UHGV virus genome: UHGV-0160579
Source: a virus
DNA: 36,299 bases
Reading direction: 5' to 3' (one strand)
The notes under the pieces were generated by a model, which was given only the letters and a program-made list of their open reading frames with translations, had not been told where the DNA came from and searched no databases. The translations under genes were made by a program, and so were the position numbers. Below are positions 15,125 through 36,299 of the stretch, in pieces (positions within the stretch are counted from its first letter, which is position 1; every line of letters begins with the position of its first letter).

Positions 15125-16207
15125 TTAGAACTGATAAACCAGACCTACAGCGACGATGTCGTCGGTATCAATACCAGCTGTTTTGGTAAACTTACTATCG
15201 TCAATTAAGTTGATTTTGTAATCAACAAAAGTGGACATGTTTTTATTAAAGTAGTAAGTAGCACCGACATCGACATACTTGACTAAGTCTCGGTCACCAT
15301 GAACACCAAGGTCTTTACCTTTTGACTGAAGGTAAGCAACAGATGGACGCAGACCGAAGTCAAACTGATATTGTGCTACTGCTTCAAAGTTTTGTGCTTT
15401 GTTTGCAATATGGTTATTACCAAAAACGGTCATATTCTGAGTTTCAGAATATGTGGTAGCCAGATAGATATTGTTCGCATCATATTTCAGGCCTGCAGCC
15501 CATACTTCCGCATTTTTGCCGGAGGCATTGAATTTGCTCTTACCATAGGCGACCTGACCGTCAGTGCGATCTGATTTAGCATAGGTTGCACCCACGCCGA
15601 ATCCTTCATACTCATAAGTAGTGGAGAAACCGAAACCATCACCATTGGCTTCAGTTACGTCAGTGCGGTCATTTTTACCCTGATACTGAGCAGCAAAGTT
15701 CAGGCCATCGACCAGACCAAAGAAGTCGTTGTTACGATAAGTTGCAACACCAGTAGTGCGACCAGTCATGAACACATCTGTTTGGGTCCAGGTATCACCA
15801 CCGAATTCTGGCAGAACGTCAGTCCACGCACCGATGTCGTATGCTACACCGTAGTTACGGCCGTAATCGATTGAGCCGTAATCACCAAATTTCAGGCCTG
15901 CAAATGCAAGACGGGTTTTGTCTTTGGAAGAACCTTGAGATTCAGCACGGTTGCCTTTGAATTCATATTCCCACTGACCGAAACCAGTCAGTTGATCGTT
16001 GATTTGGGTTTCACCTTTGAAGCCAAGACGGGCATAAGTAGTATCACCATCATCTGCATCATTAGAGGAGAAGTAGTGCTTGGCATTAACTTTCCCGTAT
16101 AGATCCAGCTTGTTACTGTCTTTATTATAAATTTCAGCTGCCTGAGCAGACATCGCCATCAGTACTGATGCAGCTACAGCAGAAATTGCCACTGTTAATT
16201 TTTTCAT
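15125..16207 (-). CDS. nmpC: Outer-membrane general porin (OmpC/OmpF family; NmpC/Lc-type phage porin)
   Basis: ATG at 16207 gives a signal peptide [23 protein letters not shown], porin-type beta-barrel sequence and C-terminal ...VAVGLVYQF; the track start at 16267 is an unsupported extension; located between Q and the holin as in DLP12 and PA-2. Confidence 0.9.
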
Positions 16208-26398: not shown

Positions 26399-26439
26399 TC
26401 ATGGCCCTTCGGGGCCATTGTTTCTCTGTGGAGGAGTCC

Positions 26440-29368: not shown

Positions 29369-29784
29369 GTTTTGCCCTGAAACTGGCGCGAGAGATGGGG
29401 CGACCTGACTGGCGCGCCATGCTTGCCGGGATGTCATCCACGGAGTATGCCGACTGGCACCGCTTTTACAGTACCCATTATTTTCATGATGTTCTGCTGG
29501 ATATGCACTTTTCCGGGCTGACGTACACTGTGCTCAGCCTGTTTTTCAGCGATCCGGATATGCATCCGCTGGATTTCAGTTTGCTGAACCGGCGTGAGGA
29601 TGACGAAGAGCCTGAAGATGATGTGCTGATGCAGAAAGCGGCAGGGCTTGCCGGAGGCGTTCGTTTTGGCCCGGACGGGAATGAAGTTATCCCCGCTTCC
29701 CCGGATGTGGCGGACATGACGGAGGATGACGTAATGCTGATGACAGTATCAGAAGGGATCGCAGGAGGAGTCCGGTATGGCTGA
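28946..29784 (+). CDS. T: Tail assembly chaperone G-T fusion produced by programmed -1 ribosomal frameshift at GGGAAAG (29344-29350)
   Basis: Slippery heptamer GGGAAAG present near the end of G; the -1 frame is open to 29784 and encodes a gpT-like sequence (…LSFALKLAREMGRPDWRAMLAGMSSTEYADWHRFY…). Confidence 0.85.
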
Positions 29785-32338
29785 ACCGGTAGGCGATCTG
29801 GTCGTTGATTTAAGTCTGGATGCGGCCAGATTTGACGAGCAGATGGCCAGAGTCAGGCGTCATTTTTCCGGTACGGAAAGTGATGCGAAAAAAACAGCGG
29901 CAGTCGTTGAACAGTCGCTGAGCCGACAGGCACTGGCTGCACAGAAAGCGGGGATTTCCGTCGGGCAGTATAAAGCTGCCATGCGTATGCTGCCTGCGCA
30001 GTTCACCGACGTGGCCACGCAGCTTGCAGGCGGGCAAAGTCCGTGGCTGATCCTGCTGCAACAGGGGGGGCAGGTGAAGGACTCCTTCGGCGGGATGATC
30101 CCCATGTTCAGGGGGCTTGCCGGTGCGATCACCCTGCCGATGGTCGGGGCCACCTCGCTGGCGGTGGCGACCGGTGCGCTGGCGTATGCCTGGTATCAGG
30201 GCAACTCAACCCTGTCCGATTTCAACAAAACGCTGGTCCTTTCCGGCAATCAGTCGGGTCTGACGGCAGATCGTATGCTGGTCCTGTCCAGAGCCGGGCA
30301 GGCGGCAGGGCTGACGTTTAACCAGACCAGCGAGTCACTCAGCGCACTGGTTAAGGCGGGAGTAAGCGGTGAGGCTCAGATTGCATCCATCAGCCAGAGT
30401 GTGGCGCGTTTCTCCTCTGCATCCGGCGTGGAGGTGGACAAGGTCGCTGAAGCCTTCGGGAAGCTGACCACTGACCCGACGTCGGGGCTGACGGCGATGG
30501 CGCGCCAGTTCCATAACGTAACGGCGGAGCAGATTGCGTATGTTGCTCAGTTGCAGCGTTCCGGCGATGAATCCGGGGCATTGCAGGCGGCGAACGAGGC
30601 CGCAACGAAAGGGTTTGATGACCAGACCCGACGCCTGAAAGAGAACATGGGCACGCTGGAAACCTGGGCAGACAGGACAGCACGGGCATTCAAATCCATG
30701 TGGGATGCGGTGCTGGATATTGGTCGTCCTGATACCGCGCAGGAGATGCTGATTAAGGCAGAGGCTGCGTTTAAGAAAGCGGACGACATCTGGAGTCTGC
30801 GCAAGGATGATTATTTTGTTAACGATGAAGCGCGGGCGCGTTACTGGGATGATCGTGAAAAGGCCCGTCTTGCGCTTGAAGCCGCCCGAAAGAAGGCTGA
30901 ACAGCAGAGTCAACAGGACAAAAATGCGCAGCAGCAGAGCGATACTGAAGCGTCACGGCTGAAATATACCGAAGAGGCGCAGAAAGCTTACGAACGGCTG
31001 CAGACGCCGCTGGAGAAATATACCGCCCGTCAGGAAGAACTGAACAAGGCACTGAAAGACGGGAAAATCCTGCAGGCAGATTACAACACGCTGATGGCGG
31101 CGGCGAAAAAGGATTATGAAGCGACGCTGAAAAAGCCGAAACAGTCCGGCGTGAAGGTGTCTGCGGGCGATCGTCAGGAAGACAGTGCTCATGCTGCCCT
31201 GCTGACGCTTCAGGCTGAACTCCGGACGCTGGAGAAGCATGCCGGAGCAAATGAGAAAATCAGCCAGCAGCGCCGGGATTTGTGGAAGGCGGAGAGTCAG
31301 TTCGCGGTACTGGAGGAGGCGGCGCAACGTCGCCAGCTGTCTGCACAGGAGAAATCCCTGCTGGCGCATAAAGATGAGACGCTGGAGTACAAACGCCAGC
31401 TGGCTGCACTTGGCGACAAGGTTACGTATCAGGAGCGCCTGAACGCGCTGGCGCAGCAGGCGGATAAATTCGCACAGCAGCAACGGGCAAAACGGGCCGC
31501 TATTGATGCGAAAAGCCGGGGGCTGACTGACCGGCAGGCAGAACGGGAAGCCACAGAACAGCGCCTGAAGGAACAGTATGGCGATAATCCTCTGGCGCTG
31601 AATAACGTCATGTCAGAGCAGAAAAAGACCTGGGCGGCTGAAGACCTGCTTCGCGGGAACTGGATGGCAGGCCTCAGGTCCGGCTGGAGCGAGTGGAAAG
31701 AGAGTGCCACGGACAGTATGTCGCAGGTTAAAAGTGCTGCCACGCAGACCTTTGATGGTATTGCGCAGAATATGGCGGCGATGCTGACCGGCAGTGAGCA
31801 GAACTGGCGCAGCTTCACCCGCTCCGTGCTGTCCATGATGACAGAAATTCTGCTTAAGCAGGCAATGGTGGGGATTGTCGGGAGTATCGGCAGCGCCATT
31901 GGCGGGGCTGTTGGTGGCGGCGCATCCGCGTCAGGCGGTACAGCCATTCAGGCCGCTGCGGCGAAACTCCATTTTGCAACCGGAGGATTTACGGGAACCG
32001 GCGGCAAATATGAGCCAGCGGGGATTGTTCACCGTGGTGAATTTGTCTTCACAAAGGAGGCAACCAGCCGGATTGGCGTGGGGAATCTCTATCGGCTGAT
32101 GCGCGGCTATGCCACCGGTGGTTATGTCGGTACACCGGGCAGTCTGGCTGACAGCCGGTCGCAGGCGTCCGGGACGTTTGAGCAGAATAACCATGTGGTG
32201 ATTAACAACGACGGCACGAACGGGCAGATAGGTCCGGCTGCTCTGAAGGCGGTGTATGACATGGCCCGCAAGGGTGCCCGTGATGAAATTCAGACACAGA
32301 TGCGTGATGGTGGACTGTTCTCCGGAGGTGGACGATGA
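29777..32338 (+). CDS. H: Tail tape-measure protein H
   Basis: 853 aa; matches lambda gpH; coiled-coil-rich middle and Gly-rich C-terminal region. Confidence 0.95.
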   Translation: MAEPVGDLVVDLSLDAARFDEQMARVRRHFSGTESDAKKTAAVVEQSLSRQALAAQKAGISVGQYKAAMRMLPAQFTDVATQLAGGQSPWLILLQQGGQVKDSFGGMIPMFRGLAGAITLPMVGATSLAVATGALAYAWYQGNSTLSDFNKTLVLSGNQSGLTADRMLVLSRAGQAAGLTFNQTSESLSALVKAGVSGEAQIASISQSVARFSSASGVEVDKVAEAFGKLTTDPTSGLTAMARQFHNVTAEQIAYVAQLQRSGDESGALQAANEAATKGFDDQTRRLKENMGTLETWADRTARAFKSMWDAVLDIGRPDTAQEMLIKAEAAFKKADDIWSLRKDDYFVNDEARARYWDDREKARLALEAARKKAEQQSQQDKNAQQQSDTEASRLKYTEEAQKAYERLQTPLEKYTARQEELNKALKDGKILQADYNTLMAAAKKDYEATLKKPKQSGVKVSAGDRQEDSAHAALLTLQAELRTLEKHAGANEKISQQRRDLWKAESQFAVLEEAAQRRQLSAQEKSLLAHKDETLEYKRQLAALGDKVTYQERLNALAQQADKFAQQQRAKRAAIDAKSRGLTDRQAEREATEQRLKEQYGDNPLALNNVMSEQKKTWAAEDLLRGNWMAGLRSGWSEWKESATDSMSQVKSAATQTFDGIAQNMAAMLTGSEQNWRSFTRSVLSMMTEILLKQAMVGIVGSIGSAIGGAVGGGASASGGTAIQAAAAKLHFATGGFTGTGGKYEPAGIVHRGEFVFTKEATSRIGVGNLYRLMRGYATGGYVGTPGSLADSRSQASGTFEQNNHVVINNDGTNGQIGPAALKAVYDMARKGARDEIQTQMRDGGLFSGGGR

Positions 32339-33366: not shown

Positions 33367-34110
33367 ATGACAGAGACAGAATCAGCGATTCTGGCGCACG
33401 CCCGGCGATGTGCGCCAGCGGAGTCGTGCGGCTTCGTGGTAAGCACGCCGGAGGGGGAAAGATATTTTCCCTGCGTGAATATCTCCGGTGAGCCGGAGGC
33501 GTATTTCCGGATGGCTCCGGAGGACTGGCTGCAGGCAGAGATGCAGGGTGAGATTGTGGCGCTGGTCCACAGCCACCCCGGTGGTCTGCCCTGGCTGAGT
33601 GAGGCTGACCGGCGGCTGCAGGTGCAGAGCGATTTGCCGTGGTGGCTGGTCTGCCGGGGGGCGATTCACAAGTTCCGCTGTGTGCCGCATCTCACCGGGC
33701 GGCGCTTTGAGTACGGGGTGACAGACTGTTACACACTGTTCCGGGATGCTTACCATCTGGCGGGGATTGAGATGCCGGATTTTCATCGCGGGGATGACTG
33801 GTGGCGTCACGGTCAGAATCTCTATCTTGACAATATGGAGGCTACTGGTTTTTACCGTGTCGCACTGACAGAGGCGCAGCCGGGCGATGTGCTGCTGTGC
33901 TGTTTTGGTTCATCGGTGCCGAATCACGCCGCCATTTACTGCGGCGACGGTGAGCTGCTGCACCATATTCCTGAACAACTGAGTAAACGAGAGAGGTATA
34001 CCGACAAATGGCAGCGACGCACACACTCCCTCTGGCGTCACCGGGAATGGCACGCATCTGCCTTTACGGGGATTTGCAACGATTTGGCCGCCGCATCGAC
34101 CTTCGTGTGA
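33367..34110 (+). CDS. K: Tail tip assembly protein K (MPN/JAB plus NlpC/P60-like domains)
   Basis: ATG at 33367 gives MTETESAILAHARRCAPAESCGFVV..., matching lambda gpK; HSHP motif of the JAB domain present. Confidence 0.9.
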   Translation: MTETESAILAHARRCAPAESCGFVVSTPEGERYFPCVNISGEPEAYFRMAPEDWLQAEMQGEIVALVHSHPGGLPWLSEADRRLQVQSDLPWWLVCRGAIHKFRCVPHLTGRRFEYGVTDCYTLFRDAYHLAGIEMPDFHRGDDWWRHGQNLYLDNMEATGFYRVALTEAQPGDVLLCCFGSSVPNHAAIYCGDGELLHHIPEQLSKRERYTDKWQRRTHSLWRHREWHASAFTGICNDLAAASTFV

Positions 34111-34649
34111 AAACGGGGGCTGAAGCCATCCGGGCACTGGCCACACAGCTCCCGGCGTTTCGTCAGAAACTGAGCGATGGCTGGTATCAGGTACGGATTG
34201 CCGGGCGGGATGCAGGAGAAACCGAATTATCATCCCGTCTTAATGAGCCGCTGGCAAATGGTGCCGTGATCCACATCGTGCCGCGTCTTGCGGGAGCAAA
34301 AAGTGGCGGTGTGTTTCAGGCGGTGCTGGGTGCGGCGTTGATTGCTACGGCAATCTGGATGCCGGGGATCAGTATCGCTTTCAGTGACATTCTCTTTTCA
34401 ATGGGTGCGGCGATGACGCTTGGTGGTGTGGCGCAGATGCTGGCACCGAAAGCCAGAACTCCCCGTACACAGACAACGGATAACGGCAAACAGAACACCT
34501 ATTTCTCCTCACTGGATAACATGGTTGCCCAGGGCAATGTCCTGCCTGTTCTGTACGGTGAAATGCGCGTGGGGTCACGTGTGGCATCTCAGGAGATCAG
34601 CACGGCAGATGAAGGGGATGGTGGTCAGGTTGTGGTAATTGGGCGGTAA
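34008..34649 (+). CDS. I: Tail tip assembly protein I
   Basis: 213 aa; N- and C-terminal regions match lambda gpI, central region divergent; overlaps K out of frame as in lambda. Confidence 0.85.
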   Translation: MAATHTLPLASPGMARICLYGDLQRFGRRIDLRVKTGAEAIRALATQLPAFRQKLSDGWYQVRIAGRDAGETELSSRLNEPLANGAVIHIVPRLAGAKSGGVFQAVLGAALIATAIWMPGISIAFSDILFSMGAAMTLGGVAQMLAPKARTPRTQTTDNGKQNTYFSSLDNMVAQGNVLPVLYGEMRVGSRVASQEISTADEGDGGQVVVIGR

Positions 34650-34722
34650 TATTATTTTACTCATGTTCTAACTAATTTAATATTTATATCGAACACTGAT
34701 AATTATTCTATTGGTTAGCTAT

Positions 34723-35061
34723 ATGAACAAAACGATTTTATTCTGCACGATTATTGCCTTAACAGGATGTAAATCTTTGGATTACGTAAAATCCGGAAAA
34801 CCTGTAATGGAAGGTAATTCATTAAAAAATATTGATGAATTGTCAGGCTGCATATCCAGACAATGGGCTGGTAATGGAACACCTATAACATCCCTTCCTA
34901 TTGAGAATGGGGTAAGCCTTTTAGTTCCACAGGCTATGGGGGGATATGATGTTGTGCTTGATATCAAAAAAGCAGGAAATGGCAGTAGTTTTACTCTTTA
35001 TGAACGTGTACCAGCATTAACGCCAAAAATTTTTGCTGATAGTGTTAATGCATGTAAATAA
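34723..35061 (+). CDS. Small lipoprotein inserted between tail genes I and J; candidate receptor-masking / superinfection-exclusion protein
   Basis: ATG at 34723 gives signal peptide MNKTILFCTIIALTGCK with lipobox LTGC; strongly AT-rich compared with flanking tail genes; followed by its own terminator; lambda has no gene at this position. Confidence 0.7.
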   Translation: MNKTILFCTIIALTGCKSLDYVKSGKPVMEGNSLKNIDELSGCISRQWAGNGTPITSLPIENGVSLLVPQAMGGYDVVLDIKKAGNGSSFTLYERVPALTPKIFADSVNACK

Positions 35062-35085
35062 TAGTTAATCCTGTCGTAACTCATG

Positions 35086-35113
35086 AGCCGCCTTTTGGGC
35101 GGCTTTGTTGTTT
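35086..35113 (+). terminator. Intrinsic terminator after the lipoprotein gene (AGCCGCC-TTTT-GGCGGCT followed by TTGTTGTTT)
   Basis: 7-bp GC-rich stem with a downstream T-rich tract, 25 nt after the lipoprotein stop. Confidence 0.6.
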
Positions 35114-35127
35114 ATGGAGTGTGAGGA

Positions 35128-36249
35128 ATGGGTAAAGGAAGCAGTAAGGGGCATACCCCGCGCGAAGCGAGGGACAACCTGAAGTCCACGCAGCTGCTGA
35201 GTGTGATCGATGCCATCAGCGAAGGGCCGGTTGAAGGTCCGGTGGACGGATTAAAAAGCGTGCTGCTGAACAGTACGCCGGTGCTGGACAGTGAGGGGAA
35301 TACCAATATATCCGGTGTCACGGTGGTGTTCCGGGCAGGTGAGCAGGAGCAGACACCGCCGGAGGGATTTGAATCCTCCGGCTCCGAGACGGTGCTGGGT
35401 ACGGAAGTGAAATATGACACGCCGATCACCCGGACCATCACGTCGGCAAACATTGACCGTCTGCGCTTTACCTTCGGTGTGCAGGCACTGGTGGAAACCA
35501 CCTCAAAGGGGGACCGGAATCCGTCGGAAGTCCGCCTGCTGGTTCAGATACAGCGTAACGGTGGCTGGGTGACGGAAAAAGACATCACCATTAAGGGCAA
35601 AACCACCTCGCAGTATCTGGCCTCGGTGGTGGTGGATAACCTGCCTCCGCGCCCGTTCAATATCCGGATGCGCAGGATGACACCGGACAGCACCACAGAC
35701 CAGCTGCAGAACAAAACGCTCTGGTCGTCATACACCGAAATCATCGATGTGAAACAGTGCTACCCGAACACGGCACTGGTCGGCGTGCAGGTGGACTCGG
35801 AACAGTTCGGCAGCCAGCAGGTGAGCCGTAATTATCATCTTCGCGGGCGCATTCTGCAGGTGCCGTCGAACTATAACCCGCAGACGCGGCAATACATCGG
35901 TATCTGGGACGGGACGTTTAAACCGGCATACAGCAACAACATGGCCTGGTGTCTGTGGGATATGCTGACCCACCCGCGCTACGGCATGGGTAAACGTCTT
36001 GGTGCGGCAGATGTGGATAAATGGGCGCTGTATGTCATCGGCCAGAATTGCGACCAGTCGGTGCCGGACGGTTTTGGCGGCACGGAGCCGCGCATCACCT
36101 GTAATGCGTACCTGACCACACAGCGCAAGGCGTGGGATGTGCTCAGTGATTTTTGCTCACTATTAATATTAATTGGGATGCAGAAGCAGTCCAGACAGTT
36201 GCGGCCGGTGATCCTGTGCGAACTGGGGATTCGTCTCCAACCGGCTTAA
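35128..36249 (+). pseudogene. J: Tail tip / host-specificity protein J, N-terminal ~344 codons only; the frame ends at a stop at 36249 after the sequence departs from lambda J at about 36160
   Basis: Residues 1 to ~344 match lambda J (MGKGSSKGHTPREA.DNLKSTQLLSVIDAISEGP.EGPVDGLKSV...KAWDVLSDFCS); thereafter the DNA does not match lambda J as recalled and the frame stops; full-length J is about 1130 aa. Confidence 0.6.
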
Positions 36250-36299
36250 CACCGGTGAGATCTCAACAACGTTTTTCCAGGGTTCACGCATCAGCTGCG

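Follow-up and report, generated by a model that had tools for sequence, protein, structure and literature searches.

What is an AT-rich lipoprotein gene doing between two tail-tip genes of a lambda-like prophage, and does its product keep further phages out of the cell? The question is raised by the virus genome UHGV-0160579, a stretch of 36,299 nucleotides (nt; hereafter, the window) in which a lambda-type tail operon with the gene order H, M, L, K, I, J contains an additional gene between I and J. The segment 34650-35084 is, almost certainly, an accessory gene cassette at the I-J junction of the prophage tail operon, and it encodes a 112-amino-acid (aa) prolipoprotein of the PHROG 914 family. 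The content of guanine plus cytosine (GC) is 0.34-0.39 over 34600-35099, compared to 0.56-0.60 on both sides; for the segment between I and J and for its flanks, the values are 0.34 and 0.57, and gene by gene, it is 0.36 for the lipoprotein gene, 0.57 for I, and 0.58 for J. The sole long open reading frame (ORF) of the I-J gap lies on the same strand as the tail genes, starts with the ATG at 34723, ends with the stop codon at 35059-35061, and encodes 112 aa with the N-terminus MNKTILFCTIIALTGCK. The ORF list opens this frame at an in-frame upstream TTG (34711), but all homologs align from the ATG. A chance ORF of at least 112 codons was obtained in 8 of 5000 dinucleotide shuffles of the insert. 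GC content and the ORF thus confirm what an earlier, sequence-only reading of this DNA had described, namely, an AT-rich I-J insert encoding a 112-aa protein with an LTGC lipobox.

A full-length match links the protein to PHROG 914 (E value 7.3e-33; residues 1-112 aligned to positions 1-118 of the 118-position profile), and its relatives from all genomic contexts match this profile as well. PHROG 914 is annotated as function unknown, and RefSeq labels the protein as hypothetical (WP_001332187.1). Searches of other collections were uninformative: in Pfam, no family was matched by the window protein at E values up to 1, nor by any of 80 family members; in NCBIfam, there was only VirB7, through the signal peptide; in PADLOC, the window protein was assigned to no family, and the 80 relatives yielded just two marginal single-member matches. 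Altogether, the sequence searches of Pfam, NCBIfam, PADLOC, and PDB returned only signal-peptide matches (VirB7, FlgP, PslD, and Llp). The family itself is sizable: about 20 enterobacterial relatives were found by a word-based search, and an exhaustive profile search of 1.84 billion representatives produced 125 clusters (at 50% identity), nearly all of which consist of proteins of 105-125 aa with a lipobox near residue 16; a second database search with the family profile gained little. Among isolated phages, no INPHARED record contains this DNA at the megablast level, and tblastn yields only Fraca and LMessi. The only invariant residues in the alignment of 80 sequences are Cys16, Cys43, and Cys111, as would be expected if one cysteine is lipidated and the other two form a disulfide; within the close clade, 31 columns are invariant. 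The family-wide alignment offered no segment with enough conservation for scanning by locus. The ratio of nonsynonymous to synonymous substitution rates (dN/dS) between clades is 0.08-0.31, and 56 of the 59 copies in the Escherichia coli clade are intact. This gene is real and is subject to purifying selection.

The features of the locus, all on the plus strand, are as follows.

34008..34649, tail-tip gene I, the upstream flank (ORF list; 81% identity to lambda I in tblastn)
34650..34722, AT-rich leader of the cassette, 73 nt, with a weak Shine-Dalgarno sequence, GGTTAG (sequence; negative in the promoter scan)
34723..35061, prolipoprotein gene of the PHROG 914 family, 112 aa plus stop codon (ORF, profile match, dN/dS, AlphaFold2 model)
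34723-34767, predicted signal peptide, with the lipobox L13-T14-G15-C16 at 34759-34770
Cys16-Lys112, predicted mature protein, with the codons of the invariant Cys43 at 34849-51 and Cys111 at 35053-55
35062..35084, short 3' untranslated stretch, present in the filled junction only (lambda alignment, junction variants)
35085..35113, GC hairpin (35085-35105) plus T-rich tract, the pre-J element (folding, terminator scan, lambda homology)
35114..35127, ribosome-binding region of J (GGAG...GAGGA), shared with lambda (lambda alignment)
35128..36159, 5' part of the tail-tip/host-specificity gene J, the downstream flank (ORF list, similarity searches)

The N-terminus of the protein, M-N-K-TILFCTIIA-LTGC, has the makeup of a bacterial lipoprotein signal, with a positively charged n-region and a hydrophobic h-region, and ends in the lipobox, for which the pattern [LVI][ASTVI][GAS]C at the end of the signal peptide was used; Cys16 is present in all 80 aligned relatives. 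Residue +2 is Lys in the window protein and K, A, S, T, G, E, or V across the family, with Asp in no member. Under the established +2 rule of Lol sorting, lipoproteins with a residue other than Asp in this position go to the outer membrane (OM). The lipobox and Lys at +2 thus predict an OM lipoprotein, and given that every sequence hallmark is present, this is what the product should be. By the same sequence rules, the prolipoprotein would be exported by Sec, lipidated at Cys16, and cleaved by signal peptidase II, after which the mature part (97 aa, 10.3 kDa, isoelectric point 7.9) would fold in the periplasm into an α/β domain of about 10 kDa that is held by a Cys43-Cys111 disulfide. The AlphaFold2 model, built on the family alignment, is a compact α/β domain with a mean predicted local distance difference test (pLDDT) score of 83.6 and values above 88 past residue 20. 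The closest fold to this model is Flpp3, an OM lipoprotein of Francisella tularensis, at 6-9% identity, and the best viral structural match is an unnamed Pseudomonas phage protein. However, none of the 80 family members matches the Pfam domain DUF3568; judging from the model, the likeness lies at the level of a common α/β (helix-grip or TBP-like) fold, and Flpp3 is itself a protein of unknown function. The structure prediction and fold search that the sequence-only reading had proposed as a check thus delivered a confident model and a nearest fold, and the fold does not assign a function.

How the gene relates to the junction becomes apparent from comparison with phage lambda. I and J had been taken to be adjacent in lambda; strictly, they are separated there by a 60-nt spacer that, in the junction alignment, already contains a homologous hairpin/T-tract, but the lambda junction does indeed lack the gene, and the net insert in the window relative to lambda is about 417 nt. 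Among sampled IMG/VR contigs that were anchored at the start of J, the I-J spacer takes one of two lengths, 60 nt in 83 loci and 476-478 nt in 65, with no intermediates; many of the 65 were retrieved via the lipoprotein itself. The filled and empty junctions differ also in the last synonymous codons of I, which ends with GTA ATT GGG CGG TAA in the filled haplotype and with GTG ATT GGT CGC TGA in the empty loci. The possibility that the 60-nt spacer of lambda is a remnant of cassette deletion was considered and rejected, the similarity at the left junction (CAAAATG-TTTTAT compared to the ORF start) being equaled by 841 of 2000 dinucleotide shuffles. Also rejected was an RNA element in the insert, for which the best Rfam candidate, GcvB, scored 19.6 bits against a gathering score of 42. 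In phage mEp021, an HNH endonuclease gene fills the I-J slot (L209, 45958-46524), which shows that cargo of another kind is taken up there in other lambda-like tail modules. Around the junction of the window, the reading frames of K and I overlap by 103 nt (34008-34110), as they do in lambda. Similarity to J ends at about 36159; searches of 5,426 E. coli genomes, the PLSDB plasmids, and IMG/VR returned no match for the last 140 nt (36160-36299), where J may carry an insertion or the assembly a joint.

All copies of the gene in the E. coli clade are located between I and J. It is present in 338 of the 5,426 complete genomes (about 6%), in 350 places, compared to approximately 8,700 lambda-type I-J junctions in 4,212 genomes. 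The carriers include UTI89, S88, APEC O1, IHE3034, NU14, and the type strain ATCC 11775. The lipoprotein gene is 99-100% identical within this clade, while the identity of I and K drops to about 91% and that of the tape-measure gene to 26%. Among the loci L012-L070, all with an identical lipoprotein gene, the tape-measure identity to that of the window (29777-32338) ranges from 26 to 98%; such divergence beside an unchanged lipoprotein gene implies strong mosaicism within one tail operon.

The relatives of the gene occupy three slots in tail modules, always on the strand of the tail genes: between I and J, between K and I, and between the G/T chaperone genes and the tape-measure gene H. The I-J slot is used by one lineage, the E. 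coli clade, the K-I slot by six lineages whose mutual identity does not exceed 45% (the Klebsiella/Kluyvera group, L071, L082, L086/87, Fraca/LMessi, and a forest-soil contig at 26% identity), and the slot upstream of H is used by one lineage, the Enterobacter-type group. A scan of species-representative genomes contributed one Kluyvera locus. In the forest-soil contig (L090, 640-1100), the start of the gene overlaps the stop codon of K as ATGA, the GC content (0.59) resembles that of the flanks (0.58-0.62), and a hairpin/T-run precedes I; there, the family member is an integral gene of the late operon. Some copies reside off tail modules: one in a phage replication module, one in an integrase-bearing island, and one in the chromosome of Shimwellia blattae (CP001560; L083, 7001-7339), which is 38% identical, lies between yidB and eco (ecotin) with no phage genes nearby, and has a host-like GC content of 0.62. 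The Shimwellia copy could stem from domestication or, conversely, be the cellular gene from which the phage version arose. On the whole, the family appears to have long been an accessory part of the tail-tip gene block, expressed with the late operon and most often placed directly upstream of I, and the AT-rich I-J copy of E. coli looks like a derived relocation.

Several of these K-I regions hold further genes. In LMessi (L092, 5647-6336) and Fraca (L091, 5725-6336), a phrog_2320 gene (function unknown) and a phrog_914 gene stand in tandem between K and I; the phrog_2320 product has the lipobox IVGC in LMessi, and the shorter annotated coding sequence in Fraca is without a signal peptide. Fraca also has an annotated cor gene downstream of J (L091, 11579-11812). 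In two metagenomic phages (L086, 1420-5939; L087, 2197-5939), the K-I gap is enlarged to about 4.5 kb and holds genes for Arc-type repressors together with Bro-N, KilA-N, and ANT antirepressor-like genes, the lipoprotein gene being the last one before I.

At 35085-35105, nine base pairs form a GC hairpin (folding energy -21 kcal/mol, z -2.6), with a T-rich tract behind it. This structure, which was detected in the terminator scan as well, had been assigned to the lipoprotein gene as its own terminator. This assignment is not supported. A hairpin/T-run follows the gene in every slot, yet at the I-J junction it is found also in lambda and in 83 empty loci, which lack the gene. The lambda counterpart (NC_001416, around 15470-15495) differs in the stem by a compensatory exchange of G-C for A-T and is followed by the same ribosome-binding site; because the 60-nt spacer of lambda already holds this homolog, the hairpin does not count as cargo of the insert. 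Compensatory stem changes accompany the element across distantly related lambda-like tail modules. The same design, a hairpin, a T-run, and ATGG, precedes J in the Klebsiella-, Kluyvera-, Enterobacter-, and Fraca-type modules, which have the lipoprotein gene in another place (L003, 6990-7053; L008, 12285-12336; L091, 6992-7044; and also before J in L204), and in the modules with the gene in other slots, a second hairpin of this design stands after the lipoprotein gene, before the next tail gene. The hairpin/T-tract thus appears to be a conserved pre-J element of lambda-like tail modules rather than a terminator that the cassette brought in. On the plus strand of the window, there is one other perfect hairpin/T-run (26401-26418). 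Inside the late operon, the pre-J hairpin could serve for transcription attenuation, for mRNA stabilization, or as a recombination joint.

Is the gene, then, a moron, as the sequence-only reading had it? It is an extra gene at a junction where most lambda-type prophages have none and that has a gene-free counterpart in related phages, and in the window, its composition is foreign to that of its neighbors, although such a contrast is not general among the relatives, as the forest-soil copy illustrates. In these respects the designation stands; an autonomous transcription unit is not supported. The consensus scan of the plus strand upstream of the gene in the window, in L003, and in L008, which cover three clades, found no sigma-70 site that passes, with the proviso that a weak or non-canonical promoter could escape such a scan; the best hexamers found by eye in the leader, TTTACT (34656-61) and AATATT (34679-84), are separated by 17 nt and match in 8 of 12 positions. 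Because no promoter was detected and because relatives either lie close to the upstream gene (at 6 nt in Fraca and 32 nt in the Klebsiella type) or overlap the stop codon of K, the gene is probably transcribed together with the tail genes from the late promoter, and weak expression in the lysogen is possible.

The product invites comparison with the OM lipoproteins of other siphophages. Cor (of phi80, N15, HK022, and T1; phrog_1119) is likewise phage-encoded, has a lipobox, is predicted to be a periplasm-facing OM lipoprotein with a disulfide, and maps to the siphophage tail region. Unlike the protein described here, the Cor precursor has 77 aa, compared to 112, and its gene is located downstream of J, near the fiber genes; in Fraca, both are present. 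The window protein does not match phrog_1119, and a profile comparison (hhalign) with Cor from Fraca aligns only 30 columns, that is, the signal peptide and about 12 tether residues. Llp of T5 (PDB 8A60, chain B) is another small phage lipoprotein with an intramolecular disulfide; it is periplasmic, is made in lytic growth, and guards against adsorption to infected cells and debris (PMC9586334, PMC12685063), and the sequence match to it is limited to residues 1-19. The mEp exclusion lipoproteins of the mEpimmI phages, Lpp021 and Lpp010, and Rtp45 are, similarly, encoded within siphophage structural gene clusters and exclude phages that depend on OmpA, LamB, or LptD, which takes the strategy beyond FhuA (PMC11893012, PMC12685063). 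However, Lpp021 and Lpp010 are only 72 and 82 aa long and are encoded just downstream of J on the opposite strand, and profile comparisons with the mEp021 (gp81) and mEp010 (gp116) proteins extend over the signal peptide and lipobox only. The fold searches returned neither Llp nor Cor. Thus, the parallel with Cor and Llp that had been drawn has the standing of an analogy, the protein being unrelated to Cor, Llp, and the mEp lipoproteins in sequence and fold.

Two further systems share the location or the general character of the gene. HK97 gp15 is an extra tail-operon gene in the slot between the tail chaperones and the tape measure, the same one that harbors the Enterobacter-clade homolog; it is YebO-like, has chromosomal homologs, and mediates an exclusion that does not act on the receptor (PMC3594210). 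Unlike the PHROG 914 proteins, it is a small inner-membrane protein rather than a lipoprotein, and its sequence is unrelated. Bor/Iss of lambda is, like the window protein, an OM lipoprotein of a lambdoid prophage and of similar size, and it confers serum resistance. However, neither the window protein nor any of the 80 relatives matches Lambda_Bor (PF06291) in Pfam, and bor lies by the lysis genes, not in the tail module. The gene between I and J is, then, a non-homologous variant of the phage accessory OM-lipoprotein gene.

The most direct way in which such a lipoprotein could act is that of Cor and Llp, that is, by binding the periplasmic face of the OM protein that its own J recognizes and so shutting off adsorption. 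The predicted location and the small size match Llp, Cor, and Rtp45 (PMC9586334, PMC12685063), and the gene sits in the tail module, adjoining J. Furthermore, among the 27 loci with an identical (99-100%) lipoprotein and a full-length J, 21 J genes have C-termini of a single type. Nevertheless, we regard this explanation as distinctly unlikely. The survey of J types, one of the checks proposed at the outset, showed that the gene is not confined to one receptor-binding type: at least four J C-terminal types (four were distinguished in these 27 loci) accompany the same protein, and one of these is just 12-17% identical over the last 250 residues, that is, essentially unrelated. In most lineages, I separates the gene from J, and in one, the whole H-M-L-K-I block does; the gene lies upstream of J in the window and upstream of I or H in the relatives, not downstream of J as cor does. 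Known exclusion lipoproteins are encoded next to the receptor-binding gene or to the receptor-binding end of J, unlike this one. Moreover, a family member coexists with cor in Fraca, and the similarity to Cor, Llp, Lpp021, and Lpp010 stops at the signal peptide. These tests of J type, placement, coexistence, and homology speak against the proposal of the sequence-only reading, in which the lipoprotein simply blocks the receptor of its own phage, but exclusion in general is still compatible with them. Lysogenic conversion to the benefit of the host, through serum or complement resistance, stress tolerance, or host interaction, as with lambda Bor/Iss or Francisella Flpp3, seems unlikely, if somewhat less so. 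The best-matching genomes listed include the extraintestinal pathogens UTI89, S88, APEC O1, IHE3034, and NU14; Flpp3, the closest fold, was deposited as a virulence determinant; homologs off tail modules are found in a chromosome and an island; and the E. coli copy has the strong AT-richness that is frequent in conversion genes acquired by horizontal transfer. Against such a role, no promoter for expression from the repressed prophage was detected in the scan of three clades, there is no Pfam match to Bor, and the deep synteny with K and I, which extends to soil-metagenome phages, fits a phage-centered role better.

A phage-centered role need not involve exclusion, and the lipoprotein might instead be a late helper of lytic growth, for example, one that remodels the OM or the peptidoglycan linkage for release. 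Compatible with this possibility are the embedding of the gene in the late operon, its translational coupling to K in the forest-soil contig, the 6-32 nt spacing in the Fraca and Klebsiella types, and its conservation beside tail-tip genes across 26-54% identity. We nonetheless consider a helper role very unlikely: about 96% of otherwise similar E. coli I-J junctions, and lambda as well, lack the gene, which is therefore dispensable for lytic growth; tails assemble in the cytoplasm, out of reach for a secreted lipoprotein; and these phages have separate lysis cassettes. That the gene is a functionless passenger, a hitch-hiking or decaying ORF linked to the tail genes, is scarcely credible. A few copies are frameshifted or truncated (L068, L069, L070, P0002, and P0018), and the E. 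coli clade has a weak ribosome-binding site, but the low dN/dS, the three invariant cysteines, the 31 invariant columns of the close clade, and the uniform length of the 125 clusters are all at odds with decay, as is the near-identity of the gene next to I and K at about 91% and a tape measure at 26%.

The reading that we tentatively put first, while rating it somewhat short of an even chance, is envelope-level exclusion from the periplasmic face of the OM. It is placed ahead of the others because of precedent: every characterized small OM lipoprotein encoded in siphophage structural modules is an exclusion factor that acts from the periplasmic side, namely, Llp (PMC9586334), Rtp45 (PMC12685063), Cor (PMC3594210), and Lpp021/Lpp010 (PMC11893012). 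Under envelope-level exclusion, the infected or lysogenic cell and its debris would be made refractory to lambda-like siphophages, a form of lytic or lysogenic conversion, with a specificity that would not be tied to the receptor-binding domain of the accompanying J. The lipoprotein might deform an OM receptor, as Llp, Cor, and Rtp45 do, or it might interfere with the tail-tip proteins gpI and gpH as they enter the OM; these two proteins have been proposed, once the receptor is bound, to insert into the OM and to form the periplasmic channel (PMC11101478, PMC12617516). Such interference would account both for the lasting association with I and for the indifference to the J receptor-binding domain. 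In its most specific form, PHROG 914 would be a new siphophage exclusion class that does not mask receptors but, anchored in the inner leaflet of the OM, intercepts both the gpI plug, which has two hydrophobic helices, and the C-terminal end of the tape measure. As a complete account, this is improbable, even though interception would explain the company with I down to 26% identity, the indifference to J, and the coexistence with Cor. It would follow that the hairpin/T-run conserved before I and J marks recombination joints for the moves between slots.

Phage OM lipoproteins are, to our knowledge, the best-understood route of superinfection exclusion in siphophages, and the characterized ones are all proteins of 6-7 kDa encoded beside the receptor-binding gene. 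The PHROG 914 family is unrelated to these characterized exclusion lipoproteins; its members are larger and fold differently, and it is I, not the receptor-binding domain, to which the gene is tied. Should the lipoprotein, in the end, have no phage-related phenotype, it would be one more uncharacterized prophage accessory lipoprotein. If, however, it does exclude phages, it would form a class with a mechanism of its own and could shed light on the crossing of the OM by gpI and gpH, a step that is poorly understood. Because the gene is found in model uropathogenic, meningitis, and avian strains as well as in the type strain, it could affect the susceptibility of such bacteria to therapeutic phages. 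Being common in model E. coli strains, it is an easily testable lead that might reveal a receptor-independent route of exclusion.
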